Source of the DNA: a virus
Lineage: Duplodnaviria; Heunggongvirae; Uroviricota; Caudoviricetes
DNA: 64,000 nucleotides
Virus record (IMG/VR): IMGVR_UViG_3300045988_158256
Reading direction: 5' to 3' (one strand)
In this document: one piece after another, positions 33,708 to 50,265 of the stretch
How positions within the stretch are numbered: the stretch's first letter is position 1
How the letters are laid out: the number at the start of each line of letters is the position of its first letter
Notes under the pieces: generated by a model
The model's database searches: none
The model's input: the letters and a program-made list of their open reading frames with translations, nothing else
Told to the model about the DNA's origin: nothing
Position numbers and translations under genes: made by a program

Positions 33708-33885
33708 TGATTTTTAAAACAGAGAAAGTGAAAATAAAAACATGCCGCAAGGCGCGGCATGTATCCAATCAATCACAGGAGCTGAAAATATGAACACGGC
33801 ATTCAAAATCATTATGGCCGCGATCTATTTCTGGCTGTTCTCTATCACTTTTGGCGGCATCGTCGCACATGGGTAAGGGGGATGC

Positions 33886-34467
33886 ATGAAAGGCGAAGTG
33901 AAAGAGCGCGGCATGATTTTTAACGATGAGATGGTCCGGGCAATTCTTGGCGGGAATAAAACACAGACTCGCAGGATTGTTGAAGAAAAATTCTATGGAC
34001 GGGCAGTGGCCGCAGAGTTGCTTGCCAAGCATTGTCCATATGGTCAACCGGGCGATCGTATTTGGGTTCGCGAAACCTACCGGGTACATGGCAAAGCGAC
34101 GGACGTCGCAACGCTGGTTTATCGCGCAAGCGTGCGTAACTCCTGGACAGAACAAACGCACCGGGTTCCGGTCGAGGTTTGTAATAAACCAGTATCAGAA
34201 AAGTGGACGCCATCAATTCACATGCCGCGCTGGGCATCGCGCATTCTTCTGGAAATTACCAACGTGCGCGTTGAGCGGTTGAACGATATCAGCGAATGCG
34301 ATGCAAGGGCTGAGGGCGCACCAACAGAATCGACCCTCATTGGCGATAAGCATTACCCAGGTTTCCGTAGCCTATGGAAATCAATTTATGGCGAAGATAG
34401 TTGGAACGCTAATCCTTGGGTGTGGGTAATAGAGTTTGAGCGTATTCAGGGGGCAACCAGTGAGTGA
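33886..34467 (+). CDS. ASCH domain protein
   Basis: MVRAILGGNKTQTRR matches the ASCH GxKxxxxR motif. Confidence 0.5.
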   Translation: MKGEVKERGMIFNDEMVRAILGGNKTQTRRIVEEKFYGRAVAAELLAKHCPYGQPGDRIWVRETYRVHGKATDVATLVYRASVRNSWTEQTHRVPVEVCNKPVSEKWTPSIHMPRWASRILLEITNVRVERLNDISECDARAEGAPTESTLIGDKHYPGFRSLWKSIYGEDSWNANPWVWVIEFERIQGATSE

Positions 34468-34720
34468 GTCAAAATGCCAAATTAATGGCAACAAGATAGA
34501 ACCGTGCGCGGCGTTGGCACAATCCCTGGAGCATGACGCTGAATACACGACGCGAAAAGGTCTGCTGAAATACAAAATCTATAACCATGAATTAATTCAT
34601 TCACAAGACCTGATCATGCTGCGGTCTGGTGAATTTTCTAAATCGCCTATTCGAGTTTCATTTTGCCCGTTCTGTGGTGAAAGTCTGAAAACGTGGGAAG
34701 CGGAGGCAACCAGTGAATAA
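34436..34720 (+). CDS. small zinc-ribbon protein
   Basis: C...C...CPFC pattern; start uncertain. Confidence 0.35.
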   Translation: MSVFRGQPVSESKCQINGNKIEPCAALAQSLEHDAEYTTRKGLLKYKIYNHELIHSQDLIMLRSGEFSKSPIRVSFCPFCGESLKTWEAEATSE

Positions 34721-35357
34721 CCGCTTTTACATGATGTGCTTGCGTGAAACTGTGGGTAATAACGCCTCATTCCATTGCCATAACGGCAATGGTTACAGTT
34801 CTGATATCGATCGCGCTCATGTTTACACGCTGGAAGAAGCCCAAAAAGCCTGGAATTGTGGACGAGATATCGATCAGCCTGTTTGCGCTGATAGCGTGGA
34901 TGCAATGGCTGTGTGGCACGTTGATTGCCAGTACATTCCCACAGAAAGCCTGATTGAGTCAGATTGCACTGCGTATGTGGCCTACAAAAAAGGTAGCTGG
35001 AACGGCAACGATGTTTACTGGCTTCAACACGGTGGATTGCCAACAGATGACTTCAGTAAAGCGACCATCTTTAGCGTCGCCAACAAAAACGAACCAGGAA
35101 TAGTTTGGTTGCCATTTTCCATTGCTGATGCAGCAAAGCGTCGGACGTTCAATATCAATAACTTTAACCGCAGAACAATGGTTCAGGGCGCAGGTTTGGT
35201 CATGCCTGACTGGTTGAAAGAGCAGAACAGAAGAAAGAAGTCGCGAAGCGGGAAGGTGCGTTGGAATTGTCCGCATTGCGGAAAAATAACCTGGCAGTAC
35301 AGCCCATATGATTTTGAAGGCTGTAGTGATTACAACTGTGAAGGATGGCGAGAATGA
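34713..35357 (+). CDS. hypothetical protein with C-terminal Cys-rich motif
   Basis: 214 aa; CPHCG...C...C. Confidence 0.4.
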   Translation: MNNRFYMMCLRETVGNNASFHCHNGNGYSSDIDRAHVYTLEEAQKAWNCGRDIDQPVCADSVDAMAVWHVDCQYIPTESLIESDCTAYVAYKKGSWNGNDVYWLQHGGLPTDDFSKATIFSVANKNEPGIVWLPFSIADAAKRRTFNINNFNRRTMVQGAGLVMPDWLKEQNRRKKSRSGKVRWNCPHCGKITWQYSPYDFEGCSDYNCEGWRE

Positions 35358-36103
35358 CAATTGACTATCAGGCACTGCGTGAGGCGGCAGAGCGTGCAAT
35401 TCCGGCAATGGAACGCCTGTTAATGTTGCCAGTTGATGATGATTTGTTAACTGAACAGGAACTTAAGGATTACGGTGTGGATATTGATGCGCTCAACGCC
35501 TTCAAATTTCTGACCGGACCAGAAACCGTGCTAGCACTACTGGATGAACGGGAAAGAAACCAGCAATACATAAAACGCCGCGACCAGGAGAACGAGGATA
35601 TTGCGCTAACGGTAGGGAAGCTGAGAGTTGAGCTTGAGGAAGTAAAACAACACGCTGAAGAATTATCCGAAACCAAGGCTGTTCGTAACCAATGGCGGCC
35701 AGATCTTTGCCCAATAACCGGACGTGCATTTTTCATGTGGATTGAGCATCCAACATTGGGAAATGTGCCGACATATGGTGGCCCATTAGATAGTTACACC
35801 ATTCCAACAAAGGACGGTGACGGTGAGTTTTCATGTGAGCGTTACGATCATGATTTTGGCGGTTGGGTAGAAAGCGAATGTCTTGGGTTATATCTGATTG
35901 ATGATAGAGAACAATGCAGGGTCTACGAACTGGAGGAACGCGTTAAGGAACTGGATGCTCGGGAAATATCGCTCCCGGAACGTAGCAGCATGCTTCATCG
36001 AACAGATTTTCACGATGATTACCAAACGGTAATGGCATACAAAGTTTCTGAAGTCATCGATGCAATCCGCGCCGCAGGCATTCGCATCAAAGGAGGTGAG
36101 TAA
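35345..36103 (+). CDS. Ead/Ea22-like protein
   Basis: N-terminal MTIDYQALREAAERA typical of lambdoid Ea22-like proteins. Confidence 0.5.
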   Translation: MARMTIDYQALREAAERAIPAMERLLMLPVDDDLLTEQELKDYGVDIDALNAFKFLTGPETVLALLDERERNQQYIKRRDQENEDIALTVGKLRVELEEVKQHAEELSETKAVRNQWRPDLCPITGRAFFMWIEHPTLGNVPTYGGPLDSYTIPTKDGDGEFSCERYDHDFGGWVESECLGLYLIDDREQCRVYELEERVKELDAREISLPERSSMLHRTDFHDDYQTVMAYKVSEVIDAIRAAGIRIKGGE

Positions 36104-36112
36104 TGCGTGTGG

Positions 36113-36289
36113 CATGTATCGGCTTGTTACCGTACCCGACTCGTTTTTGGGCTTCTGCGCTAATTGCAAAGCCGTATGTCCTGATGGCTGACAACATCAT
36201 CCCGGCACCAAAGCGCCGCCATACCGGTATTGCAGCGGCACGACGAGCAGCAAAGAGACGCAGGAGAGCAAAGCGATGAAAAACCGTAA
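36113..36289 (+). CDS. small basic protein
   Basis: 58 aa; strong AGGAGG RBS; not in ORF track (below 60 aa). Confidence 0.35.
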
Positions 36290-36466
36290 AGCAAAGATTC
36301 TGTTAGTTCGTAGAAACGCTCCTGGCGTCTGGCAGTGGGTGAGACTCAGCAACCGACGGATGGGGTTAATGAAACATTACGGGATGATGGATTGTGGTTT
36401 TTGCAAAAAGCCCAGCGCGGCGCAAAACCGCTGGAAAAACCACTTGCGCACTAAAGGAGAGTGATA

Positions 36467-36675
36467 TGGCTATCGCTGCAAGTTACACCATGCATCTCTA
36501 TTGTGATTGCCTCCAGTGTACAGATGGCAAATATAAGTCGCCAGACTTCGGTGAGTATATAGGTACGTCATGGGCTGGCTGTGCAAAAGAGGCGCGCAAG
36601 GATGGCTGGCGAATAAGCAAAGACAAAACGCGTGCTTTTGCGCCCGGGCATAAAGTTTTGAGGATTAACAAATGA
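36467..36675 (+). CDS. small Cys-rich protein
   Basis: 69 aa; GGAG RBS. Confidence 0.35.
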
Positions 36676-37868
36676 CCACTATAACCAAAGAGCGACTGCT
36701 GACAATCAAGCAGTGGCGCGAAACATACGGACCGGGTAGCAACGTTGTACTGCCAGCAGAAGAAGCGGAAGAACTGGCACGGATTGCTCTGGCATCGCTG
36801 GAAGCAAAACCAATAGGTGCATTCCACATTGCAGAACAGCAAGTTGACGGCACAAGTGACTACCTCAAGGATGGAGAATGGCCTATTGATAATGGAATTA
36901 TTGAGGTCTACGCCGCTCCCCCCGTTCCAGTAGTACCGGAAGAAAAACCAATGCCTAATCCTCTTAGCATGTACGCGGTTGATGCTGTTGCCGCTATTGC
37001 AGAGGTGAGAGGCTGGAACGCCTGCCGCGCCGCCATGCTTCAGTCCGGAAACTTTCGGGAAAATAAGAATTCGTCAACCAATAATTTTCGGGAAATCGCG
37101 GAAACGTCAACCAACTATCCGGTAATTCCTAGTGAAGTGTTGTCCGCAATCCTGAAGGTTGCCAAGATTCGTGCCGATTTCGATGATTTTGACGGTGACA
37201 GGCGAGGTATCGGTGATTGTCTGGATGAGGCTGAGCAAGAGCTTATCGTTACCATTAACAAATATGCCAGTCAGTTGGCAGCAGAACCGATAGCGACTAA
37301 TGACGTTCGAGAGCAAACAGCCGTTCCGCCAGTTCCTGTAATACAGGCTGATGTCGCGCAGGCAATTGAAAAACTCAAACGGAAATTAGTGGAATGCAAT
37401 CGCTATAACTACTGCGCAGATGCAGTTAAGGGCGTTGAGTATGCCTGCCACGCTGCCATGCTTCAGGGTAGCCAACCTGTAAGCCAAACTTACAAGTTTC
37501 CAGTTAATACACCTTGCCAGGATGCGCCAGCCCATATCTGGCTGCAAACAGCTGGAGTATGGCCAGAAGATGGCGAGTTAAGCGAATTAACGTGGTGCAG
37601 CCACAATCAGCACCATGATGACACGCTATATGTTCGAGCTGACTTGGTAAATGGCAATTCTCAGGTAACTCCGGATGGTTGGATAAGCTGTAGTGAGCGA
37701 ATGCCCGCTCAAGATGATTGGATTTTAATTTATTCAAAGCACGGTGAGTATATGGCAGGACAGGTGCAAGGGGAATACGTGGAGTTGAGCGACGGCACTT
37801 TATCCTGGTTAGGGAACGCCTTGTTCTGGATGCTGCTACCAGAACCTCCCCAGGAGGCAGGTCAATGA
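36672..37868 (+). CDS. DUF551-like protein
   Basis: C-terminal WISCSERMP...LFWMLLPEPP resembles the DUF551 signature of lambdoid prophage proteins. Confidence 0.5.
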   Translation: MTTITKERLLTIKQWRETYGPGSNVVLPAEEAEELARIALASLEAKPIGAFHIAEQQVDGTSDYLKDGEWPIDNGIIEVYAAPPVPVVPEEKPMPNPLSMYAVDAVAAIAEVRGWNACRAAMLQSGNFRENKNSSTNNFREIAETSTNYPVIPSEVLSAILKVAKIRADFDDFDGDRRGIGDCLDEAEQELIVTINKYASQLAAEPIATNDVREQTAVPPVPVIQADVAQAIEKLKRKLVECNRYNYCADAVKGVEYACHAAMLQGSQPVSQTYKFPVNTPCQDAPAHIWLQTAGVWPEDGELSELTWCSHNQHHDDTLYVRADLVNGNSQVTPDGWISCSERMPAQDDWILIYSKHGEYMAGQVQGEYVELSDGTLSWLGNALFWMLLPEPPQEAGQ

Positions 37869-37932
37869 GCTGGCCTGAAGCATTCGCAACGGTAGGAATT
37901 GTGATGGCGGCAGCACTGGGTTTGTATTCAAT

Positions 37933-38184
37933 TTGTCGCTGGTGGTAACGATGGGGAAATTAACTTTTGTAGTCGAATTTGAGGATGGTAAAGAGCCACC
38001 TGTTAGCGCCAATCTTGATGTTGCTGGTGGAAGGCTTGTTTCGGTTCTATTTGGTGACTACCGAGATGACTTCTTCCAACCAGAAGAAGTTGATGTAGTG
38101 CGAGAGGCATTAAACGAGTTAAGTGTTGACAACGATGATGCTCATGCGGAAATCATCCAAAAAATGGAACTGCTAACTCACTAA
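37933..38184 (+). CDS. small acidic protein
   Basis: 83-aa ORF (possible start at 37951). Confidence 0.35.
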   Translation: MSLVVTMGKLTFVVEFEDGKEPPVSANLDVAGGRLVSVLFGDYRDDFFQPEEVDVVREALNELSVDNDDAHAEIIQKMELLTH

Positions 38185-38232
38185 ATTATCAATTATGGTG
38201 CTATAACCTACGACACCGAGAGAAAATTTATA

Positions 38233-38355
38233 ATGTCAAAAGTAAATGTTTTGATTTTTTCAGCAATTGTTGGCTTTGGTTTTACTGCCGGAGTGCAGAT
38301 TTATATTACGTGGGAAAAAATCATCAACTACGCATGGAGTTGTTTTATTAAGTGA
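38233..38355 (+). CDS. small hydrophobic peptide (40 aa), AT-rich cassette
   Basis: MSKVNVLIFSAIVGFGFTAGVQIYITWEKIINYAWSCFIK; single transmembrane helix; below ORF-track threshold. Confidence 0.35.
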   Translation: MSKVNVLIFSAIVGFGFTAGVQIYITWEKIINYAWSCFIK

Positions 38356-38362
38356 GGTAAGT

Positions 38363-38656
38363 ATGTGGAGAGGTAATAGTCATGGCAAAAGCCAGATGAT
38401 ACTTACCGAATATCAGTTTGACCATAAAACCAATAAATCACGTTCAGTATATTTGCTTCGGCACAATAGCCGCGTAAGGAATACCGTGCTGGAGCAAAAT
38501 CTGACTGTTGAAATAGATAATTACGGGGGCTTCAAGCCAACAATTTCGCTTGATGATTTTCCTCGTGGTTTAAGCGAAAGAGAAGCAATGCTGAAATTAG
38601 CAGAATGGCTACAAAGATTAAGCATTGCTATTGAAGATAACTGGTCTGAACCTTAA
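38363..38656 (+). CDS. hypothetical protein (97 aa), AT-rich cassette
   Basis: ATG at 38363 with GAGG 8 nt upstream; no domain recognised. Confidence 0.45.
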   Translation: MWRGNSHGKSQMILTEYQFDHKTNKSRSVYLLRHNSRVRNTVLEQNLTVEIDNYGGFKPTISLDDFPRGLSEREAMLKLAEWLQRLSIAIEDNWSEP

Positions 38657-38662
38657 ATTTAT

Positions 38663-39037
38663 ATGATGACACTAAAACATTTTCTTGACCGCCCATTATG
38701 GGCGGCAGCCGCAGGCTATGACTTTAATTATATGGATTGCATGTCTTATACCGCCAATGCATACGACTATTCCTTCAGTCTGCTGCTTAATTCTTTAAGA
38801 ATATTGCCGCAAACAGAAGTTGGAGAGCTTCATTTATGGCTATTGGGCTTTATCGCGGCTGGAGTTGGTATTGCTGTATGGCCTTTTATTTTCTGGCTGG
38901 TGGCTGTTGTAGTGTGGTTTAAGTGCAAGACGTACCGGAGAAAGTATTTCTTAGGTGATGGAATGACTGATATTGCCAAAATGAACATTGAAAAATGGAC
39001 TAAGGAATGTGAAAAGAAATGGCGCAAAAAGAAATGA
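38663..39037 (+). CDS. membrane protein (124 aa), AT-rich cassette
   Basis: Hydrophobic segment LWLLGFIAAGVGIAVWPFIFWLVAVVVWF; K-rich C-terminus. Confidence 0.45.
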   Translation: MMTLKHFLDRPLWAAAAGYDFNYMDCMSYTANAYDYSFSLLLNSLRILPQTEVGELHLWLLGFIAAGVGIAVWPFIFWLVAVVVWFKCKTYRRKYFLGDGMTDIAKMNIEKWTKECEKKWRKKK

Positions 39038-39951
39038 CCAGAATCACTGAAGAGCGTATATCAGAGATTATTTCCCGTATCGAAATGTATGGTCACGGTG
39101 CTGGATATACGGCAGATGAAGTATTGGCACTTGCCCAAATGGCTTTGGCGGCTTGCAAAGATGATAAAAAAATGAAGCTTATCGACTTGTTAGTGAAGGA
39201 GCTGCCTAAGTGTGGCGGGTGGCCTGATGGAATGAGTTATTGTTACCTACCCAGTGTCAATTTAATGGCACCATGCGCGACTTTTGCTTTTGGCTCAGAC
39301 CACAAAAAAGACACTTTCTTTGGGCGCAATTTTTGTTGTGAGATTGAGCTTCCAATTGGTGACCTTGATAGCGATGAATACCAGTCAGTTGTCACTCGCG
39401 AACAATACGAATCAGCTCTCATAGCGTCGCAGAAAGTCGAGTTCAATGGTGATGAACTTGAAAGTAAGACTTACAGGTTGGATTTTGGGCAATGGCTGGA
39501 ACAGCAACGCGGGAAAATCGATGTGGACTGTGGTTGTGTGTCCACTGAAACATTCATGCACTGGCTGCGGGTAGCTTACGAGGCTGGCAACTATCCGGAT
39601 ATTCCGGATAGTTCGGTGCCAGCGCCAGGAAAGGGCGTCACCGGTGAACGTATCCGCATTAAGCCGCATGTTTATCGCGAACTGGTTAACCGTCTCCACG
39701 ATACAGCGATCAAGTGTGCTGGCACCCAGCAATTACGAGAAAGAATTAGCCGTGTTTTGGGCGACGTTATTACGCCATATCATCATAAACAAGCCGAGAA
39801 AAGCGGTCTGGAAAGGTGTCATCTTGAGGCAGCATTAAACATTAAGCCGGGGCATACGCTTGGCATTATTGATGCACTGTTGGTTCATAAGATGGCCAGG
39901 GCTTTATTGTCGTTGGTGGACGCTGGTGATACAAGCGAGGGTGAAGTATGA
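39019..39951 (+). CDS. hypothetical protein
   Basis: 310-aa ORF in operon. Confidence 0.4.
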   Translation: MAQKEMTRITEERISEIISRIEMYGHGAGYTADEVLALAQMALAACKDDKKMKLIDLLVKELPKCGGWPDGMSYCYLPSVNLMAPCATFAFGSDHKKDTFFGRNFCCEIELPIGDLDSDEYQSVVTREQYESALIASQKVEFNGDELESKTYRLDFGQWLEQQRGKIDVDCGCVSTETFMHWLRVAYEAGNYPDIPDSSVPAPGKGVTGERIRIKPHVYRELVNRLHDTAIKCAGTQQLRERISRVLGDVITPYHHKQAEKSGLERCHLEAALNIKPGHTLGIIDALLVHKMARALLSLVDAGDTSEGEV

Positions 39952-40310
39952 GAGTTGCAGATCACATCAAACACCTTGAAAGAATTATCGAAAACGGTGA
40001 ACTCTTAAGAGATCAGATGAGACGCACGGCAGAAGCCAGGGAGGCGATAATCCGCAGTCAGGCTGGTAAATTAAAGCAATTATCAGAGATTAACGCGCTA
40101 TACAAGAACAGACGTAACCGGGCGGCGCTGCGGCTTCAGAAAGCACGTAATGAAATTAAATTGGTGGAGGCAAAACTGAAAAAACAGATTCAGCGTTACG
40201 ATCAGCAAGATGCTTTTTATGCCGCCATCAAGGCGGCTGCTAATGAAATAGGCATCTGGAAGTTGCTGGTGGAGAAAGCAAAGACGAAGTTAAATGCCAA
40301 CGAAAGCTGA
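39948..40310 (+). CDS. coiled-coil protein
   Basis: 120 aa, overlapping start. Confidence 0.4.
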   Translation: MRVADHIKHLERIIENGELLRDQMRRTAEAREAIIRSQAGKLKQLSEINALYKNRRNRAALRLQKARNEIKLVEAKLKKQIQRYDQQDAFYAAIKAAANEIGIWKLLVEKAKTKLNANES

Positions 40311-40375
40311 ACTACAGGTACCCACCAGCACATACAGAAAATGATTGTTTCCACATCAAGGAGATTTTAATGTTT

Positions 40376-40513
40376 CACTGAACATTAAGTAAGCCAGTGC
40401 ATAATTCCATTTTTTACTGACCTTAAAAGCAAAATCAAAACGATGATGAGGATGATCGCCAGAATCTGGCTAATAACAGGCGCATCTAAAAATGCACTCA
40501 GGAACTGAAAAAA
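40376..40513 (-). CDS. small hydrophobic peptide (45 aa), type I toxin-like
   Basis: MTAFFQFLSAFLDAPVISQILAIILIIVLILLLRSVKNGIMHWLT; AGGA RBS about 11 nt upstream; sits in an otherwise non-coding 640-bp gap. Confidence 0.3.
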
Positions 40514-40971
40514 AGCAGTCATTAAGGTGGTTCCTTGTCAAATGTAAAGGAGCACTTGCTCACGTTGACGTAGAAACCCAACCCCTATATAGTTGGATTC
40601 GGTGAAAGAAAGTCGTTAACGTGAGCTTACGGCACATGTTTTCGGAACAACATCAGGGAACGGCTAATTCCTTGATGCGGATGGGGTCTGTAATGCAGAC
40701 CCTATCTATTAACGTCATGATTGCATCTCAAATTTTCTCCTTATCTTCATTAATCAAAATTCATTTCATTTGTGAAACATCACAATATTTAGAAAATGGC
40801 CCTCTTGCAAGTGCATAACTTTGTGGATAAATCAGGAAGAAAAAAGTTGATTCTGCGCACGGCAAGGCAGATAAGCTGTGCACAAAAATCAATGGGAAAA
40901 GAAAAAAAATTAAAAGTTACTTTGCTGGTTAAATAATAGTCGTTACGCAATTGTTCTGGATGGGATTTGAT

Positions 40972-41223
40972 ATGCACGATTGGAATATTGCAGCTAAAAG
41001 TCAGGAAGAACGGGATAAGGTTAACGTTGATCTGGCTGCCAGCGGTGTGGCGTACAAAGAGCGATTGAACATACCTGTCATAGCTGAACAGGTAGCCCGC
41101 GAGCAACCAGAGAATCTGCGCACCTATTTCATGGAACGGTTACGGCACTATCGGCAGTTAAGCCTCCAGTTGCCAAAAGGGAGCGATCCGGTGTATCAGA
41201 ACGAGGATGCACCAAAAAAATAA
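40972..41223 (+). CDS. hot: homolog of DNA polymerase III theta subunit (HolE)
   Basis: [36 protein letters not shown] parallels E. coli HolE. Confidence 0.75.
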
Positions 41224-41308
41224 CGGCAAGATGGGGGAGAAATGTGATTAGCCCCCAGCGTGGCGCGCCTACAAACCCCGCTTTCACAAACTATGCCTTT
41301 TCAATGTA

Positions 41309-41328
41309 TACTGTATGAATAAACAGTA
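41309..41328. promoter_or_regulatory. LexA box upstream of humD
   Basis: TACTGTATGAATAAACAGTA: CTGT-N8-ACAG palindrome. Confidence 0.8.
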
Positions 41329-41346
41329 TCATTGAGGTAAAACGCT

Positions 41347-41736
41347 ATGGGCTTCCCTTCTCCTGCGGCGGATTATGTTGAAAGCCGAATTTCTCTTGAT
41401 CAGCAGATAATTAGACATCCTTCAGCGACCTACTTCATGCGGGCAGCTGATAGCCATCACCGTGAGGGAATATTGCAGGGTGCTTTGCTGGTGGTTGATT
41501 CCTCGCTTACTCCGGTTGATGGTTCTCTGCTTGTGTGCGCTATGGAGGGTGAATATCGCATAAAGAGATACAGGAAGTATCCGCGCCAGCACCTGGAGGA
41601 TTTAAGCACCGGGAAGAAAGAGGCGTTACCAGTAGATGACGATGGATACACGGGCAGTAATGCTGTTTTTGGTGTGATCACTCATGTCATCAATGATGCC
41701 CGAAGTGGGGAATTTGATGATTGTCCGGTTATTTAA
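41347..41736 (+). CDS. humD: UmuD-like protein
   Basis: 129 aa; LexA box upstream; position before phd-doc. Confidence 0.8.
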   Translation: MGFPSPAADYVESRISLDQQIIRHPSATYFMRAADSHHREGILQGALLVVDSSLTPVDGSLLVCAMEGEYRIKRYRKYPRQHLEDLSTGKKEALPVDDDGYTGSNAVFGVITHVINDARSGEFDDCPVI

Positions 41737-44292: not shown

Positions 44293-45486
44293 GTGACCTG
44301 GGACGATCACAAGAAGAATTTTGCTCGCCTGGCGCGAGATGGTGGTTACACCATCGCACAATATGCCGCCGAGTTTAATCTCAACCCAAACACCGCACGT
44401 CGTTATCTCCGTGCATTCAAAGAAGACACCGGAACAGCGGACAGCCGTAAGCCAAATAAGCCTGTCAGAAAACCACTAAAAAGCATGATCATTGATCACG
44501 CTAATGATCAACGTGCAGGTGATCACGTTGTGGCTGAAATGGCTGAAAAACAAAGAGTTAATGCTGTTGTCAGTGCCGCAGTCGAGAACGCGAAGCGCCA
44601 GAATAAGCGCATAAATGATCGTTCTGATGATCATGACGTGATCACCCGCGCCCACCGGACCTTACGTGATCGCCTGGAACGCGACACCCTGGATGATGAT
44701 GGTGAACGCTTTGAATTCGAAGCTGGCGATTACCTGATAGATAACGTTGAAGCGCGGAAGGCCGCGCGCGCTATGTTGCGTCGGTCCGGGGCTGATGTTC
44801 TGGAAACCACTCTTCTGGAAAAGTCTCTCTCTCATCTCCTTATGCTGGAGAACGCCAGGGATACGTGTATTCGCCTGGTGCAGGAAATGCGCGATCAGCA
44901 AAAAGACGATGATGAAGGTACTCCGCCTGAATACCGTATCGCGAGCATGCTAAACAGCTGTTCCGCGCAGATAAGCAGCCTGATCAACACCATTTACAGC
45001 ATCCGGAATAACTATCGAAAAGAAAGCCGGGAGGCGGAAAAGCACGCTTTGTCTATGGGGCAAGCTGGCATTGTTAAGCTGGCATACGAACGAAAGCGTG
45101 AAAATAACTGGTCAGTGCTGGAAGCAGCTGAATTCATTGAGGCGCATGGCGGGAAAGTGCCGCCCCTGATGCTGGAGCAAATCAAAGCCGATCTGCGTGC
45201 TCCTAAGACCAATACCGATGATGAGGAAAGGCAAACAGCCGTCGGTGGCCCTTCTCTTGAAGATCTGGACAAAGTTGCGCGAGAACGGGCCGCCAACCGC
45301 CGCGCCGATGCCGCATTGTGGATTGAGCAGCGTAGGGAAGAAATCGCCGATATCGTTGATACAGGCGGTTATGGAGATGTTGATACTGAAGGTGTATCAA
45401 ACGACCCATGGCTGGAACAAGACCTGGACGAAGACGAGGAGGAAGACGAAGAAGTTACCCGCAAGCTATACGGGGATGATGATTAA
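44293..45486 (+). CDS. pacA: terminase small (pac-recognition) subunit PacA
   Basis: 397 aa; contains the hexamer pac site internally. Confidence 0.8.
44486..44644. promoter_or_regulatory. pac packaging site (TGATCA hexamer clusters with Dam sites)
   Basis: Four TGATCA hexamers at 44486-44525 and three TGATCR at 44616-44644 inside pacA. Confidence 0.85.
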
Positions 45487-46970
45487 TGGCCAGAAGTTGC
45501 GTAACGGATCCACGTTGGCGCGAGCTGGTGGCGCTATATCGTTATGACTGGATTGCTGCCGCTGATGTTTTGTTCGGCAAAACACCTACCTGGCAGCAGG
45601 ATCTGATTATTGAGTCTGTGCAGGAACAGGGTAGCAAGACATCTGTTTCGTCTGGTCACGGTACCGGGAAATCAGACATGACTTCTATCATGATCATGTT
45701 GTTCATAATCATGTATCCCGGTGCCCGCGCCATTATCGTTGCGAACAAAATTCAGCAGGTAATGACCGGTATATTCAAGTACATCAAGATAAACTGGGCT
45801 ACTGCCACCAGCCGTTTTCCATGGCTTGCTGATTATTTTGTTCTGACAGAAACCGCTTTCTATGAGGTTACTGGTAAAGGTGTATGGACTGTAGTACCGA
45901 AGGGCTTTCGTCTGGGAAGTGAAGAAGCTCTCGCCGGTGAACACGCAGATCATCTTCTGTATATTATCGATGAAGCCTCCGGTGTCAGTGATAGAGCTTT
46001 CGGTATCATCACCGGTGCTCTTACCGGACAGGATAACCGCATCTTATTGCTGTCACAGCCTACACGCCCAAGCGGCTATTTCTACGATACACACCATAAA
46101 CTGGCCAAGCGTCCTGGTAACCCTGATGGCGTTTATACGGCGATCACGCTTAACAGTGAGGAATCACCGTTGGTAACGCCAGCATTTATCAAAATGAAGC
46201 TGGCGGAGTACGGCGGGCGTGATAACCCTATGTACATGATTAAGGTACGCGGCCTATTCCCTAAATCACAGGATGGCTTCCTTCTTGGACGTGATGAGGT
46301 TGAACGTGCAACGCGGCGGAAAGTCAAGATTGCCAAAGGATGGGGCTGGCTTGCATGTGTGGACGTTGCTGGTGGTACGGGACGGGATAAGTCCGTTATC
46401 AATATCATGATGGTGTCCGGCCAGCGAAATAAACGCCGTGTAATCAACTATCGAATGCTGGAATACACAGACGTTACAGAAACGCAGCTTGCCGCCAAAA
46501 TTTTCGCAGAATGTAATCCTGAGCGATTCCCAAATATCACCATAGCGATAGACGGCGATGGCCTGGGTAAAGCAACGGCGGATCTGATGTACGAGTATTA
46601 TGGTATTACCGTACAGCGTATACGCTGGGGTAAAAAGATGCATAGCCGTGAAGATAAGAGCCTGTACTTTGATAAACGTGCTTATGCCAACGTTCAAGCC
46701 GCAGAGGCCGTAAAATCTGGTCGTATGAGACTGGATAAGGGTAATGAAACTATTGAGGAAGCGTCGAAAATCCCTGTAGGGATTAACTCCGCAGGTCAAT
46801 GGAAGGTGATGAGTAAGGAGGATATGAAGAAAAAACTCAACCTGCACTCACCAGACCATTGGGATACATATTGTTTCGCTATGCTGGCGGATTATGTTCC
46901 CCAGGATGAAGTGCTTAGCGTCGAAGACGAAGCGCAGGTTGATGAAGCTCTGGCATGGCTTAATGAATGA
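45486..46970 (+). CDS. pacB: terminase large subunit PacB
   Basis: 494 aa; ATG overlaps pacA stop. Confidence 0.7.
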
Positions 46971-46973
46971 ATA

Positions 46974-46990
46974 TTTGCTCTAATAAATTG
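46974..46990 (+). promoter_or_regulatory. C1 operator-like site upstream of the c4-icd-ant module
   Basis: TTTGCTCTAATAAATTG, 15/17. Confidence 0.6.
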
Positions 46991-47122
46991 TGTTTTTTAA
47001 CTACCGATGTTACATTGAGCCTGACCTCTTGCGCCTTGAGGCATTTTCGGTTTATGCTTATCAGGCACCTCATTAAAACGGGTGCCGGGATTGGCCTCCC
47101 GCTTAAGTCTAAGGCGATACAG

Positions 47123-47150
47123 ACGCCGCTCGCGTCTTTTTTTTGTATCG
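47123..47150 (+). terminator. hairpin terminator
   Basis: gacgc-cgct-cgcgtc stem-loop followed by T8. Confidence 0.55.
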
Positions 47151-47173
47151 GCGTACACGCACACCTCTACAAT

Positions 47174-47249
47174 GGTGGGCTGTATGGGGCTACCTTCGGG
47201 TAGGCTGGTTACCTTGGACGCCAGTAAGGCCAACTCCGTACAGTCCACC
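47174..47249 (+). ncRNA. c4-like antisense immunity RNA (candidate)
   Basis: 76-nt structure: 14-bp closing stem ggtgggctgtatgg / ccgtacagtccacc (two G-U), internal UUCG hairpin ctacc-ttcg-ggtag; TACAAT -10-like hexamer just upstream; directly precedes icd. Confidence 0.5.
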
Positions 47250-47309
47250 GCCAGCAAGATTGGTCTCTTCTGCGGTGGTTACATACCAACGTCTAAGGAG
47301 GCTGCCAAT

Positions 47310-47531
47310 ATGGCTACTATCCCTACCCCAACTCATCCTGAATTTATCTGGCGCTTTTACTCCTGCCAAAAACGTCACTATCACTTCGTTATTGCACCGA
47401 CAGAAGATGAGGCCCGCTCTCAGCTTCCTGACGCCCCATGTATTTTCTCTGCCCGTTTTTCCACTGATTCACGCAATTCTCTCAGTTACTGGTGCCTCCC
47501 TGTTAACGCTTCTGCTCAGGAGGGACTATGA
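47310..47531 (+). CDS. icd: Icd-like cell division inhibitor
   Basis: 73 aa; TAAGGAGG RBS; HPEFIWRFYSC...VIAPTEDEARSQL...ARFS pattern typical of Icd-like proteins; stop overlaps ant start (ATGA). Confidence 0.65.
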   Translation: MATIPTPTHPEFIWRFYSCQKRHYHFVIAPTEDEARSQLPDAPCIFSARFSTDSRNSLSYWCLPVNASAQEGL

Positions 47532-48646
47532 GAACGTCATTAGTCACCCGTGAAGAGATGATCGAGGCAATTGAACAGCACACTGCCTGTATCAGTACCA
47601 GGGATATACCAGGCGTTATTGCCAACTACTTCATGATCACCAAACAACTTTACCGGAGAAAGGACAAGAACGCGGTTCACCGTATCCTGTTGTCTGATAT
47701 CCGCGAATACCTGCTCGAACAGGGTCATCTGAATTACGCAACCGCCGCAGCCGAAGCACGCAAGGAGGCACACAGAATGAAAGCAACTAACGTTAAATCA
47801 GAAAAAATTCATGCACCTTCAGTTCAAGAATCGGAGCTGGTGGTTGTTCAGAATCAGTCTGATGAAATTCCCGTTCTGGAATGGCAGGGAGTGCGTGTAG
47901 TGACAACCGAGACTCTTGCTAGAGGGTATGGGACAGAAACAATCCGTATTCGCCAAAATCATCATGAGAACAAAGTACGCTTTGTTGAAGGGAAGCACTT
48001 TTTCAAAGTTGAAGGAGAATCATTGCGCGAGTTGAAGCACAGAGTAGCTTTAAACTACTCTGTAAAAATTGCTCGCAATGTTCGCTCACTCACCCTCTGG
48101 ACAGAACGCGGCGCAGCCCGCCACGCTAAAATGCTCGAAACCGATCAGGCATGGGCATTCTTTGAAAAACTGGAAGACAGCTACTTCCGACAAAAAGAAC
48201 AGCAACCGATCGCAATCCCCCAGACGCTTCCTGAAGCCCTACGCCTGGCTGCCGAACTGGCTGAACAAAAGCAACTTCTGGAACAGAAAGCCCACCAGCT
48301 AAATCAGCAGCTGGTGGCCGCCGCTCCTAAAGTCGATTTTGCCGACCGGGTATCAGTAGCTAAAGGGATCCTGATTGGGAATTTTGCAAAGGTTGTTGGA
48401 CTTAAACAAAACGCGCTGTTTGTCTGGTTACGGGAGAACGGCATCCTGATAGCGTCCGGTGGACGTAAAAATGTGCCGTTCCAGCAGTACATCAACGCGG
48501 GGTATTTCACGGTGAAAGAAGTGGTGCTGGATGATGAAGATGGCTACCAGATACGGTTGACGCCTCAATTAACGGGTAAAGGCCAGCAGTGGTTGACGCG
48601 TAAACTGCTCGATGCTGGCTTGTTAAAACCGGTGGCGGCTGAATAA
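47528..48646 (+). CDS. ant: antirepressor (ORF6N plus KilAC/ANT domains)
   Basis: Central ORF6N-like segment and C-terminal KilAC-like segment; in-frame internal ATG at 47777 with AAGGAGG RBS suggests a shorter Ant2-like form. Confidence 0.7.
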   Translation: MRTSLVTREEMIEAIEQHTACISTRDIPGVIANYFMITKQLYRRKDKNAVHRILLSDIREYLLEQGHLNYATAAAEARKEAHRMKATNVKSEKIHAPSVQESELVVVQNQSDEIPVLEWQGVRVVTTETLARGYGTETIRIRQNHHENKVRFVEGKHFFKVEGESLRELKHRVALNYSVKIARNVRSLTLWTERGAARHAKMLETDQAWAFFEKLEDSYFRQKEQQPIAIPQTLPEALRLAAELAEQKQLLEQKAHQLNQQLVAAAPKVDFADRVSVAKGILIGNFAKVVGLKQNALFVWLRENGILIASGGRKNVPFQQYINAGYFTVKEVVLDDEDGYQIRLTPQLTGKGQQWLTRKLLDAGLLKPVAAE

Positions 48647-48655
48647 TAGAAGAAT

Positions 48656-48673
48656 GCCCGGTTGATGCCGGGC
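48656..48673. terminator. bidirectional terminator between convergent ant and c1
   Basis: gcccgg-ttgatg-ccgggc hairpin flanked by A/T-rich runs. Confidence 0.6.
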
Positions 48674-48678
48674 ATAAT

Positions 48679-49530
48679 TTATTGCGCGCTTTCGGGGTTG
48701 TCGTTTACTGGCTGCCCCTTCTTGGTTTTACGGCTGCGCGTAACTGATGCGGCTGACTTAACCTTTTTCTCTTCGCGAGTGATGGCAATTTGTTTTTTTA
48801 CATTTTCAATATCTGCCAGGCGATATATTTTTGCTTGCGGCCAGCGGTCGCAGATGATCGGTTCTATGGAGTCATAAAGGCTAAATTTTGCTTTTTCGAA
48901 TTCACCGTTGATGATAATTCCATCACGGAGAGTTTCATCGCAGATAAACACGCCACACAGTGGCACATGGTAACTAACTGATTTACCATCATTGTAGTTA
49001 GGGCTACTGGAAATGTAGTGGACGCGCAGCATTGTTTCGCTAAAGCCGTGTACGCGCATACGGAATTTTTCATCCTCCGGGTACTGCTTCATTAGCTCTT
49101 TTGTTGCTTCCAGGTTCTCTATGTATTTCGCACTGTGCTCATTGATCCCCGCGCTTTTTTGGATGCGAATGTCCTTATCAATCAGATGAATAATGCGGCC
49201 AGCGGTCATGTTGACGCTGTTCACAGCTTCTGTCTGATAAGTTGTAACCTTACGCACACCGCGAAGGATGTTAGGCACTGGATATAAAATAGTCTTTGGG
49301 ATATTGAGGTCTGGATACTGTTCCAGTTCCCGCGCCATTAAAGTCCATTTATCAATTTCAGCCTGAATGCTGTCCGTTTCTTTGAACGGCAGAACGACAA
49401 CCGGGCGAACAGGACGACCGTCGCTGGCGGCATCAACGTGTTGGGCGCGTGCAACAGCTTTTTTTAGAAAGAGATCCCTGAAGCTGACGAACTCCTGGTA
49501 CAGTTGTTCGCCGTAGACATAATTTATCAT
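48679..49530 (-). CDS. c1: C1 repressor of lysis
   Basis: 283 aa as for P1 C1; adjacent to coi and loxP-cre; many C1 operator copies in the window. Confidence 0.75.
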   Translation of the reverse strand: MINYVYGEQLYQEFVSFRDLFLKKAVARAQHVDAASDGRPVRPVVVLPFKETDSIQAEIDKWTLMARELEQYPDLNIPKTILYPVPNILRGVRKVTTYQTEAVNSVNMTAGRIIHLIDKDIRIQKSAGINEHSAKYIENLEATKELMKQYPEDEKFRMRVHGFSETMLRVHYISSSPNYNDGKSVSYHVPLCGVFICDETLRDGIIINGEFEKAKFSLYDSIEPIICDRWPQAKIYRLADIENVKKQIAITREEKKVKSAASVTRSRKTKKGQPVNDNPESAQ

Positions 49531-49640
49531 TGATCCTCCTCCAGAATTGACATGGCCAACAACTCACAGCGGATTACACTGGGAGTTGTTGGCCACCATT
49601 ATAGAAGGATCCAACGAAAATAATAGATTTATTAGTGCAT

Positions 49641-49850
49641 TTATTGTGAGTCTGGCTGGTTAGTGGCCATGAGATATTCGATTGTGTCAGTGAGATCATC
49701 CAGGTCGTCTTGGGTGATGCGGTACTCCTGATTGGATATCTTTGAGTAGTGTTCAGCAATGGCGCGGGCAGCGTCGGTTTCGGCGGGGTCTACAGATAAA
49801 GCGTTAGAGCAATGTCTAACGTCGTCGATGGTTGGTGGAATGAAAGCCAT
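49641..49850 (-). CDS. coi: C1 inactivator Coi
   Basis: 69 aa, directly upstream of c1 on the same strand. Confidence 0.65.
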   Translation of the reverse strand: MAFIPPTIDDVRHCSNALSVDPAETDAARAIAEHYSKISNQEYRITQDDLDDLTDTIEYLMATNQPDSQ

Positions 49851-50088
49851 AATTATGCCTCACTGTATTGACAACACAGAGCCTGAAGCTCTGACCTACT
49901 GTTTCACCCATGATCCATGCTGGGGTAATCTAACAACATTGCGCTGTGTGTAAGATGAGCAATGCATAGCTGTAATGCCGTTGTATAAGGTTTCCCTGTT
50001 TGCTCATTTCCTTCTGAGCCGCTCTACAACGCTGAAGACACATTAAATAGTGAATCCAAAGTCGTATTACGAAACGGCGGCAAAACTA

Positions 50089-50105
50089 TAATTTATTAGA
50101 GCAAT
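50089..50105 (-). promoter_or_regulatory. C1 operator (reverse orientation)
   Basis: Reverse complement ATTGCTCTAATAAATTA, 16/17. Confidence 0.7.
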
Positions 50106-50170
50106 TGTCAAACAACTATGAAAAACAATCCAGTTTTTGGCTGGTGGAGTGGGATTTTTCTCTCAAAATT

Positions 50171-50187
50171 TATTGCTCTAATAATTC
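50171..50187 (+). promoter_or_regulatory. C1 operator-like site
   Basis: ATTGCTCTAATAATTCT, 15/17. Confidence 0.6.
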
Positions 50188-50231
50188 TTGATTTTTATGC
50201 GCAGCTGGACGTAAACTCCTCTTCGGACCTA

Positions 50232-50265
50232 ATAACTTCGTATAGCATACATTATACGAAGTTAT
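50232..50265. other. loxP: loxP recombination site
   Basis: Exact 34-bp ATAACTTCGTATA-GCATACAT-TATACGAAGTTAT. Confidence 0.98.

Follow-up and report, generated by a model that had tools for sequence, protein, structure and literature searches.

Positions 46971-48678 of a 64,000-nucleotide (nt) stretch of the IMG/VR virus record IMGVR_UViG_3300045988_158256 (hereafter called the window) probably form a second, self-contained antirepressor cassette of the immunity I (immI) type, which is located between the genes pacB and c1 of a P1-like phage-plasmid. This cassette would be additional to a canonical immI locus situated outside the window and would carry its own RNA specificity. From its 5′ end, it includes an operator-like site for the C1 repressor, a terminated small RNA (sRNA) of the IsrK family, a C4-type antisense RNA, an icd-like gene, and an antirepressor gene with nested ant1-type and ant2-type starts (Table 1). 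An earlier sequence-only reading of the window had described an immI-type module (operator, C4 RNA, icd, ant1/ant2) between pacB and c1, and all of the features that it listed are found where it placed them. The IsrK-family RNA and its a1 and b1 sites are elements that this reading did not recognise.

In the reference genome of phage P1 (NC_005856), the stop codons of pacB (93206) and c1 (93231) are separated by 24 nt. Similarity between the window and P1 is lost inside the pacB stop codon and returns at the c1 stop codon, with approximately 1.7 kb in place of the P1 spacer. The immI locus of P1 is instead found at 48140-49731, followed by kilA-repL and with sim on its other side. The P1 map given in the sequence-only reading, with immI far from immC and ahead of kilA-repL, is therefore accurate, and reference P1 does not share the order pacB-c4-icd-ant-c1. 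The closest plasmid, NZ_CP033882.1, matches the window at 100% identity across the 2-kb junction and at approximately 98% across the parts of the window that align. This plasmid has both modules, one comprising c4-a1b1, C4, icd, ant, kilA, and repL, and the other comprising isrK, C4, an icd-like gene, and an ORF6N-type ant gene at the pacB-c1 site. The window itself starts in rlfA, which is the gene after repL in P1, and thus the canonical sim-immI-kilA-repL site is expected just off its left edge. From these alignments, we infer that the pacB-c1 module is an extra cassette beside a canonical immI in this genome as well. The suggestion that the immunity organisation is rearranged or mosaic consequently stands in its second part but not in its first, since the module appears to be an addition rather than a moved immI.

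Table 1. Features of the pacB-c1 cassette and its borders (window coordinates)
Feature	Position	Strand	Evidence and remarks
pacB	45486-46970	+	Left boundary of the insert; open reading frame (ORF) call; P1 similarity ends inside its stop codon
C1-operator-like site TTTGCTCTAATAAATTG	46974-46990	+	15/17 match to the P1 operator consensus; overlaps the −35 element of a putative promoter
Putative C1-controlled promoter	46988-47016	+	−35 TTGTGT (46988-46993), 17-nt spacer, TG-extended −10 TACATT (47011-47016)
Putative IsrK-like RNA promoter	47029-47058	+	−35 TTGCGC (47029-47034), 18-nt spacer, −10 TATGCT (47053-47058)
IsrK-family small RNA (a1b1 element)	47065-47142	+	Rfam RF01394, 60.8 bits (gathering score 50)
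C4-type antisense RNA	47174-47250 (~76-77 nt)	+	Rfam RF01695 at 47168-47255, 75.9 bits (gathering score 45), full-length model match
C4 target region, icd leader	47260-47301	+	a2 TTGGTCT (47260-47266), b2 GTCTAAGG (47291-47298)
icd-like gene	47310-47531	+	73 amino acids; NCBIfam NF033153, 49.8 bits; 80% identical to P1 Icd
ant1-type antirepressor gene	47528-48646	+	372 amino acids; Pfam ORF6N and KilAC
Bidirectional intrinsic terminator	48654-48675	both	GC-rich hairpin of 8-9 base pairs; terminator-like score on each strand; between ant and c1
c1 repressor gene	48679-49530	-	NCBIfam NF041318 equivalog, 610.9 bits; ~98% nucleotide identity to P1 c1

The C4 and IsrK-like RNAs and their pairing

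The 76-nt structured RNA that had been described as C4-like is assigned to family RF01695 by an Rfam scan, which is the check that the sequence-only reading proposed for it. Structurally, the 77-nt core is predicted to fold as the C4 RNA of P1, with a long outer stem and two hairpins (minimum-energy fold, z = -3.7). The b′ segment CCTTGGAC (47212-47219) occupies the loop of hairpin 2, and the a′ segment AGGCCAA (47227-47233) is single-stranded. These segments are complementary to sites in the icd leader, with 7 base pairs between a′ and a2 and 8 base pairs between b′ and b2. The b2 site overlaps the Shine-Dalgarno sequence of icd (AAGGAGG, 47295-47301).

The hexamer TACAAT at 47168-47173 had been considered promoter-like. 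However, mature C4 begins directly after it, and in the Rfam C4 model it falls within the unpaired leader. Because a start 6-8 nt downstream would truncate C4, this hexamer is probably not the c4 promoter. A promoter scan scored no properly spaced −35 element for it and found nothing at this position. In NZ_CP033882.1, the Prokaryotic Genome Annotation Pipeline (PGAP) has placed an 'ash family protein' pseudogene at 27799-27912, which corresponds to approximately 47172-47285 of the window and lies over the C4 RNA gene. This call is probably a protein-level artefact of the conserved RNA sequence.

The IsrK-like RNA is located upstream of C4, and its match to RF01394 covers model positions 1-77. 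It forms two 5′ hairpins followed by an intrinsic terminator, with a stem at 47121-47137 and a run of eight T nucleotides. The a1 segment TTGGCCT (47091-47097) is located in a hairpin loop, and the b1 segment GTCTAAGG is located at 47107-47114. A terminator had previously been noticed after the operator and is indeed present, but it is not a stand-alone element and instead represents the 3′ end of this RNA. The c4-a1b1 model of Rfam (RF03163) matches the same two hairpins, although weakly (20.5 bits compared to a gathering score of 46.7).

Relatives of Icd were gathered from 79 IMG/VR loci by using an Icd alignment as the query, and from three genome-contig loci by using a single Icd protein. 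Pairing was assessed in an alignment (A2) of 28 distinct isrK-C4-leader sequences from these two sources. When the C4 and IsrK stems are taken together with the a′-a2 and b′-b2 interactions, 99.9% of the alignment cells are paired, compared to 31-47% when the partners are slid, and 17 of the 56 pairs exhibit changes on both sides. Compensatory changes occur in nine of 27 internal pairs of C4. The a′-a2 and b′-b2 interactions are preserved in 100% of the 28 sequences, with compensatory changes at four of seven and three of eight positions, respectively. The a1-a′ and b1-b′ interactions are likewise paired in 100% of cells (28/28 sequences), and double changes are present in seven of these 15 pairs.

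The sequences carry three a alleles (with GGCC, GGAA, and GAGA cores) and three b alleles (GTCTAAGG, GTCAAAGG, and GCAAAAGG). These assort independently into five combinations, each of which matches in all three places. Because the six segments stay complementary through independent reassortment of a and b, the comparison provides strong evidence that the pairings are under selection. The pacB-c1 site appears to be polymorphic for at least five specificities, and all five of the alleles found there differ from those of P1 and P7. The allele in the window is distinct from the P1 allele, from the other pacB-c1 alleles, and from the P7-type allele that the canonical immI of NZ_CP033882.1 carries. 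Specifically, a′/b′ is AGGCCAA/CCTTGGAC in the window, compared to CTGTCAA/TCACTAAC in P1 and CTGCTAA/TCATTCGT in the P7-type module. Predicted energies for C4-leader duplexes range from -22 to -26 kcal/mol for cognate and from -12 to -18 kcal/mol for non-cognate combinations, a crude comparison that includes stem residues and is used here only in a supporting role.

The icd and ant genes and their control signals

The icd-like gene was predicted earlier as a 73-amino-acid ORF with a strong ribosome-binding site (RBS) and an overlap with ant, and the match to NF033153 agrees with this assignment. Its stop codon overlaps the ant start codon in the sequence ATGA (47528-47531). The ORFs of the cassette are intact in the window, and the same holds for most of the more than 60 loci compared; conservation of Icd over 60+ loci is 95-100%.

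The protein encoded by ant contains an ORF6N domain (PF10543, residues 116-202, E = 2e-19) and a KilAC/ANT domain (PF03374, residues 260-361, E = 4.1e-31). A nested ant2-type start is present at ATG 47777, with a Shine-Dalgarno sequence AAGGAGG at 47762-47768. This start lies 249 nt after the first one, as for ant2 of P1. Both the domains and the internal start had been noted from the letters alone. Overall identity to P1 Ant1 is 56% and is unevenly distributed, with the ends well conserved (approximately 65% over the N-terminal 85 amino acids and 90% over the C-terminal 145) and the central segment weakly similar. It is the central segment that carries ORF6N, which Pfam does not detect in P1 Ant1. 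Judged from this comparison, Ant is a chimeric protein. The cassette is apparently complete and self-contained.

Control signals flank these genes on both sides. The operator-like site that had been noticed after pacB (TTTGCTCTAATAAATTG, 15 of 17 positions) differs from the consensus ATTGCTCTAATAAATTT by two mismatches, both of which are terminal. In the window, 14 sites are found at three or fewer mismatches, compared to 0.36 expected from shuffled sequence, and the site at 46974-46990 is kept in nearly all homologous loci, across alleles. Its placement relative to the −35 element is the same as that of Oc4/P51a in P1, and C1 is predicted to bind it. The C1 protein encoded by the adjacent c1 gene is presumed to be both the binder of this operator and the target of Ant. 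The 14 operator-like sites are dispersed over positions 13841-61186, which is consistent with the dispersed operator network of P1, and a perfect consensus site at 17687-17703 overlaps an inverted partner at 17698-17714.

The putative C1-controlled promoter was assigned by eye and by positional analogy with P2c4/P51a of P1. A separate promoter may serve the IsrK-like RNA, whose candidate −10 element (TATGCT) stops 7 nt short of the first position of the Rfam isrK match and corresponds in alignment to TATATT in homologues from phages that carry Shiga toxin (Stx) genes. Downstream, ant is convergent with c1, and the bidirectional terminator that the sequence-only reading had assigned to both genes is scored as a terminator on both strands. 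The sequence ATGCCGG is common to the 24-nt pacB/c1 spacer of P1 (L003 2464-2487) and to the right arm of this terminator (window 48654-48678).

A candidate immunity switch and its relatives in other prophages

The immI locus of P1 and P7 has the same order of elements as the cassette, namely a C1 operator over the −35 element, a1/b1, C4, a2/b2 with b2 on the icd RBS, icd, and ant1/ant2. The two nevertheless differ in several respects, the a′/b′ sequences given above and the presence of the cassette in addition to a canonical immI among them. The locus in P1 and P7 sits between sim and kilA-repL, whereas the module in the window sits between pacB and c1. In P1, the element upstream of C4 is of the c4-a1b1 type, whereas a1 and b1 of the window reside in a terminated IsrK-type RNA. 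Finally, the central domain of Ant is of the ORF6N type in the window, unlike that of P1 Ant1.

A comparable arrangement is found in the Gifsy-1 prophage, whose isrK-orf45-anrP-isrJ locus has been studied experimentally. The short IsrK RNA acts in trans to activate translation of the downstream antirepressor (Hershko-Shalev et al. 2016, PMC4825925). Gifsy-1 is the only case in which this activity is known, and the order isrK-like RNA, C4, icd, ant in the window would be compatible with it. The same study reported that orf45 is conserved in nucleotide but not amino-acid sequence and that it yields a processed RNA of approximately 80 nt. At positions 34131-34329 on the minus strand of Gifsy-1 (L092, NC_010392), we find an isrK match of 79.3 bits immediately followed by a C4 homologue of 69 bits located before anrP, and this C4 homologue coincides with the published orf45. 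The isrK locus also matches the c4-a1b1 model at 48.1 bits, which is above the gathering score. The order resembles that of the window in that a terminated IsrK-family sRNA precedes a C4 homologue and an antirepressor gene, which in Gifsy-1 are reached by read-through. In contrast to the window, Gifsy-1 has no icd homologue and no C1 operator, the N-terminal part of its antirepressor is unrelated, and the output of the system is the Q-type antiterminator AntQ. On this comparison, IsrK seems to be the a1b1 partner of a C4 RNA, with orf45 as a C4 homologue. Neither the IsrK paper nor a 2025 review makes a link between IsrK and C4.

Similar leaders are present in Stx-converting lambdoid phages (Oslovirus and others; annotated in LC710660.1), with 79-80% identity over 260 nt that include the C4 backbone. 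For example, the isrK-C4 leaders of Stx2 phage F039 (L090, 2500-2760) and Ss-VASD (L091, 1501-1756) are 79-80% identical to window positions 47066-47328. They share the a1/b1/a′/b′/a2/b2 logic and the first codons of the downstream ORF. The two alleles differ from that of the window, yet within each of them a1/a′/a2 and b1/b′/b2 match each other. Unlike the window, the downstream gene is Rha-type or hypothetical rather than icd-ant, there is no C1 operator, and the setting is an integrated lambdoid prophage.

The best-supported and most likely function of the pacB-c1 cassette is that of a second, orthogonal antirepressor switch acting on C1. Transcription would begin at the promoter whose −35 element overlaps the C1 operator, with a second promoter immediately before 47065 probably contributing as well. 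Most transcripts would stop at the terminator at 47121-47145 to produce an IsrK-family RNA of approximately 78 nt that displays a1 and b1. Transcripts that read through would contain a C4 precursor, which might be trimmed to the 76-77-nt C4, a step that RNase P performs in P1. As the covariation shows, C4 pairs with b2 and a2 of the icd leader through its loop b′ and its single-stranded a′, and the icd RBS covered by b2 would thereby be occluded. Presumably, as in P1, blocked translation of icd turns off ant1/ant2 through translational coupling and Rho-dependent polarity.

Through its a1 and b1 segments, the IsrK-like RNA might titrate C4 or compete for it, thereby serving as an anti-antisense partner. 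This role is proposed because the short IsrK of Gifsy-1, when supplied in trans, turns on translation of the antirepressor downstream. If C4 were lacking or outnumbered, the cell would make Icd and Ant1/Ant2, and Ant would inactivate C1 if it acts like its P1 homologue. Such a shortage of C4 could arise when the phage infects a cell whose prophage lacks the cognate C4, or when repression is lost. Because neither P1 nor P7 nor the co-resident canonical immI has the same a′ and b′, the cassette would constitute an independent immunity-specificity channel.

Several points weigh against this interpretation. The fold of the IsrK-like RNA alone is no more stable than that of shuffled sequence (z = -0.7), and both putative promoters fall below the threshold of a consensus promoter scan. 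The central domain of Ant is unlike that of P1 Ant1, and C1 binding is thus not assured. The covariation reflects a small number of independent allele switches, some of which were probably produced by recombination rather than stepwise mutation. The canonical immI of this genome would lie outside the window, and we infer all of the expression, processing, and protein-binding steps of the cassette.

An unlikely alternative, taken as a whole, is that the cassette does not act in the lysis-lysogeny decision of its own phage but is directed at other phages, either because the extra C4 silences the antirepressors of competitors or because infection fires an Ant that resident prophages cannot silence. 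The presence of several specificity alleles at one site, with the same alleles at other sites, would be expected of such a device, as would an RNA architecture common to Stx and Gifsy-1 prophages of the same hosts. Moreover, the heteroimmunity of P1 and P7 is known to reside in c4 (PMC12197685). However, the two Stx-phage alleles examined differ from that of the window and direct cross-talk is not seen with them. This alternative also overlaps the switch on C1 described above rather than excluding it. As a separate candidate, direct C4 cross-talk with Stx phages is unsupported for the two alleles examined, both of which are unlike that of the window.

The pacB-c1 site among P1-like phage-plasmids

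Alignments place the window region in a P1-like (Punavirus) phage-plasmid. Positions 17-1943, which span rlfA, rlfB, pmgF, bplB, and the start of pmgG, align with P1 52075-54000 at 97% identity, and the corresponding values are 86% for pacA/pacB (44508-46968) and 98% for c1-coi-imcBA-lox (48680-50248). The ORFs for pacA, pacB, c1, coi, and cre are found at their expected places. Three tRNA genes (18373-18445, 18451-18523, and 20331-20403) occupy the place of the P1 tRNA cluster, and their counterparts in a related plasmid are annotated as Asn, Thr, and Ile. Positions 33880-41733 do not align to NZ_CP033882.1, which has a type I restriction-modification system there. This segment matches a block that is annotated in other plasmids with ead/Ea22-like, S24 peptidase, DNA polymerase III theta, DUF551, and other genes. 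For the variable stretch at 33.5-42 kb, full coverage is given by none of the PLSDB records (at best 89%), and the window as a whole is contained in no database record.

It is very improbable that the module represents a single immI that was relocated beside immC, with kilA-repL left behind or lost. Such a history would account for the single C4 match in the 64-kb window and for the lack of kilA or repL there, the latter as had been remarked for the region after the module. In addition, loss of the canonical immI region is known in some P1-like elements (pJIE250-3, PMC6906374). However, a window that starts in rlfA, directly downstream of the P1 repL position, leaves the canonical locus out of view, and NZ_CP033882.1 has both modules. 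Among the matches listed, almost all insert-bearing records contain two or three matching places. The module is also no copy of P1 immI, as it has an isrK-type leader, another C4 specificity, and another Ant centre.

The same insert with the same boundaries is found in vB_EcoM-673R5, RCS47, and JL22 (98.9%, 95.5%, and 93.5% nucleotide identity, respectively), as well as in pTZ20_1P and several hundred P1-like plasmids of E. coli, with an overall range of 93.5-100%. Counting matches that cover at least 80% of a junction-spanning query, the insert is present in 268 PLSDB plasmids and, among 5,426 complete E. coli genomes, in 249. Among the 700 of these genomes that have the flanking genes, 308 carry the uninterrupted P1-type junction. 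In this genome set, the two arrangements thus have similar frequencies (249 versus 308), and the insert is not unusual. Given the shared ATGCCGG, the P1 junction could be a deletion derivative of an insert-bearing ancestor rather than the ancestral state.

An insertion between pacB and c1 was mentioned previously by Venturini et al. 2019, who named RCS47 and also reported icd-ant homologues at a further site in pSvP1 (PMC6906374). A second c4-icd region has been described in D6-like plasmids (PMC6799933). Published accounts of the pacB-c1 insert give an antirepressor gene and two short ORFs and no RNAs, and we found no published description of its RNA components. The paper on phage JL22 does not mention the genes of the insert. 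The insert of RCS47 carries another RNA allele, with a leader 73% identical to that of the window; otherwise, the window is one more instance of this arrangement.

The elements of these cassettes appear in various combinations and places. Both ORF6N-type and P1-type Ant proteins are found at the pacB-c1 site among the fetched loci, and leaders of the IsrK type are present at the canonical site before kilA-repL as well (L047, L037). A third cassette site is located next to cre and convergent with it (IMG/VR loci L078-L080, L082, L085, and L087). Some contigs carry tandem or truncated cassettes (L017, L064, L088), including a tandem after pacB in L017, and some IMG/VR contigs have three or more cassettes. 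The leader and C4 backbone of the window are 79-80% identical to those of Stx-converting lambdoid phages, compared to 67-71% for other pacB-c1 alleles. The cassette is an ordinary mosaic insertion that belongs to the known C4/icd/ant immI type and occupies a secondary site noted in earlier work.

Least probable of all is that the cassette is an inert passenger left by recombination with a lambdoid or other prophage and no longer functional in P1-like immunity, because, despite the Stx-like leader, the foreign type of the Ant centre, and the tandem and truncated copies noted above, the ORFs are intact here and in most other loci, a P1-type C1 operator has been acquired and is conserved across alleles, and perfect complementarity of six RNA segments through allele changes is hard to explain without selection on pairing.

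More broadly, and with slightly less than even confidence, we suggest that P1-like phage-plasmids carry one to several interchangeable C4/antirepressor cassettes at no fewer than three sites (sim/kilA-repL, pacB/c1, and next to cre). These would be drawn from a pool shared with Stx- and Gifsy-type prophages, in which c4-a1b1 or IsrK leaders are combined with two kinds of Ant central domain and with a/b alleles that are orthogonal to one another and number at least five to seven. Together they would form a combinatorial heteroimmunity code between co-infecting temperate phages. If this is true, IsrK is simply the a1b1 anti-antisense partner of C4, and orf45 of Gifsy-1 is a C4 homologue.

With regard to genome structure, the value of the finding is mainly negative, as what had looked like rearranged P1 immunity is a common accessory cassette and not a structural oddity. 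The value of further work may lie in the possible multi-cassette, multi-allele immunity code and in the unremarked equivalence of IsrK and a1b1, rather than in the position of the cassette. The link between IsrK and C4 would recast the mechanism published for a Salmonella sRNA as a form of the classical c4 system of P1, and the cassette alleles offer a natural set of orthogonal antisense RNA/target pairs. P1-like phage-plasmids often carry resistance genes in E. coli, and coexistence, exclusion, and induction among them depend on immI specificity. Additional C4/Ant cassettes (a second and sometimes a third) that are polymorphic and orthogonal in their RNAs would influence which lysogens a given P1-like element can superinfect.

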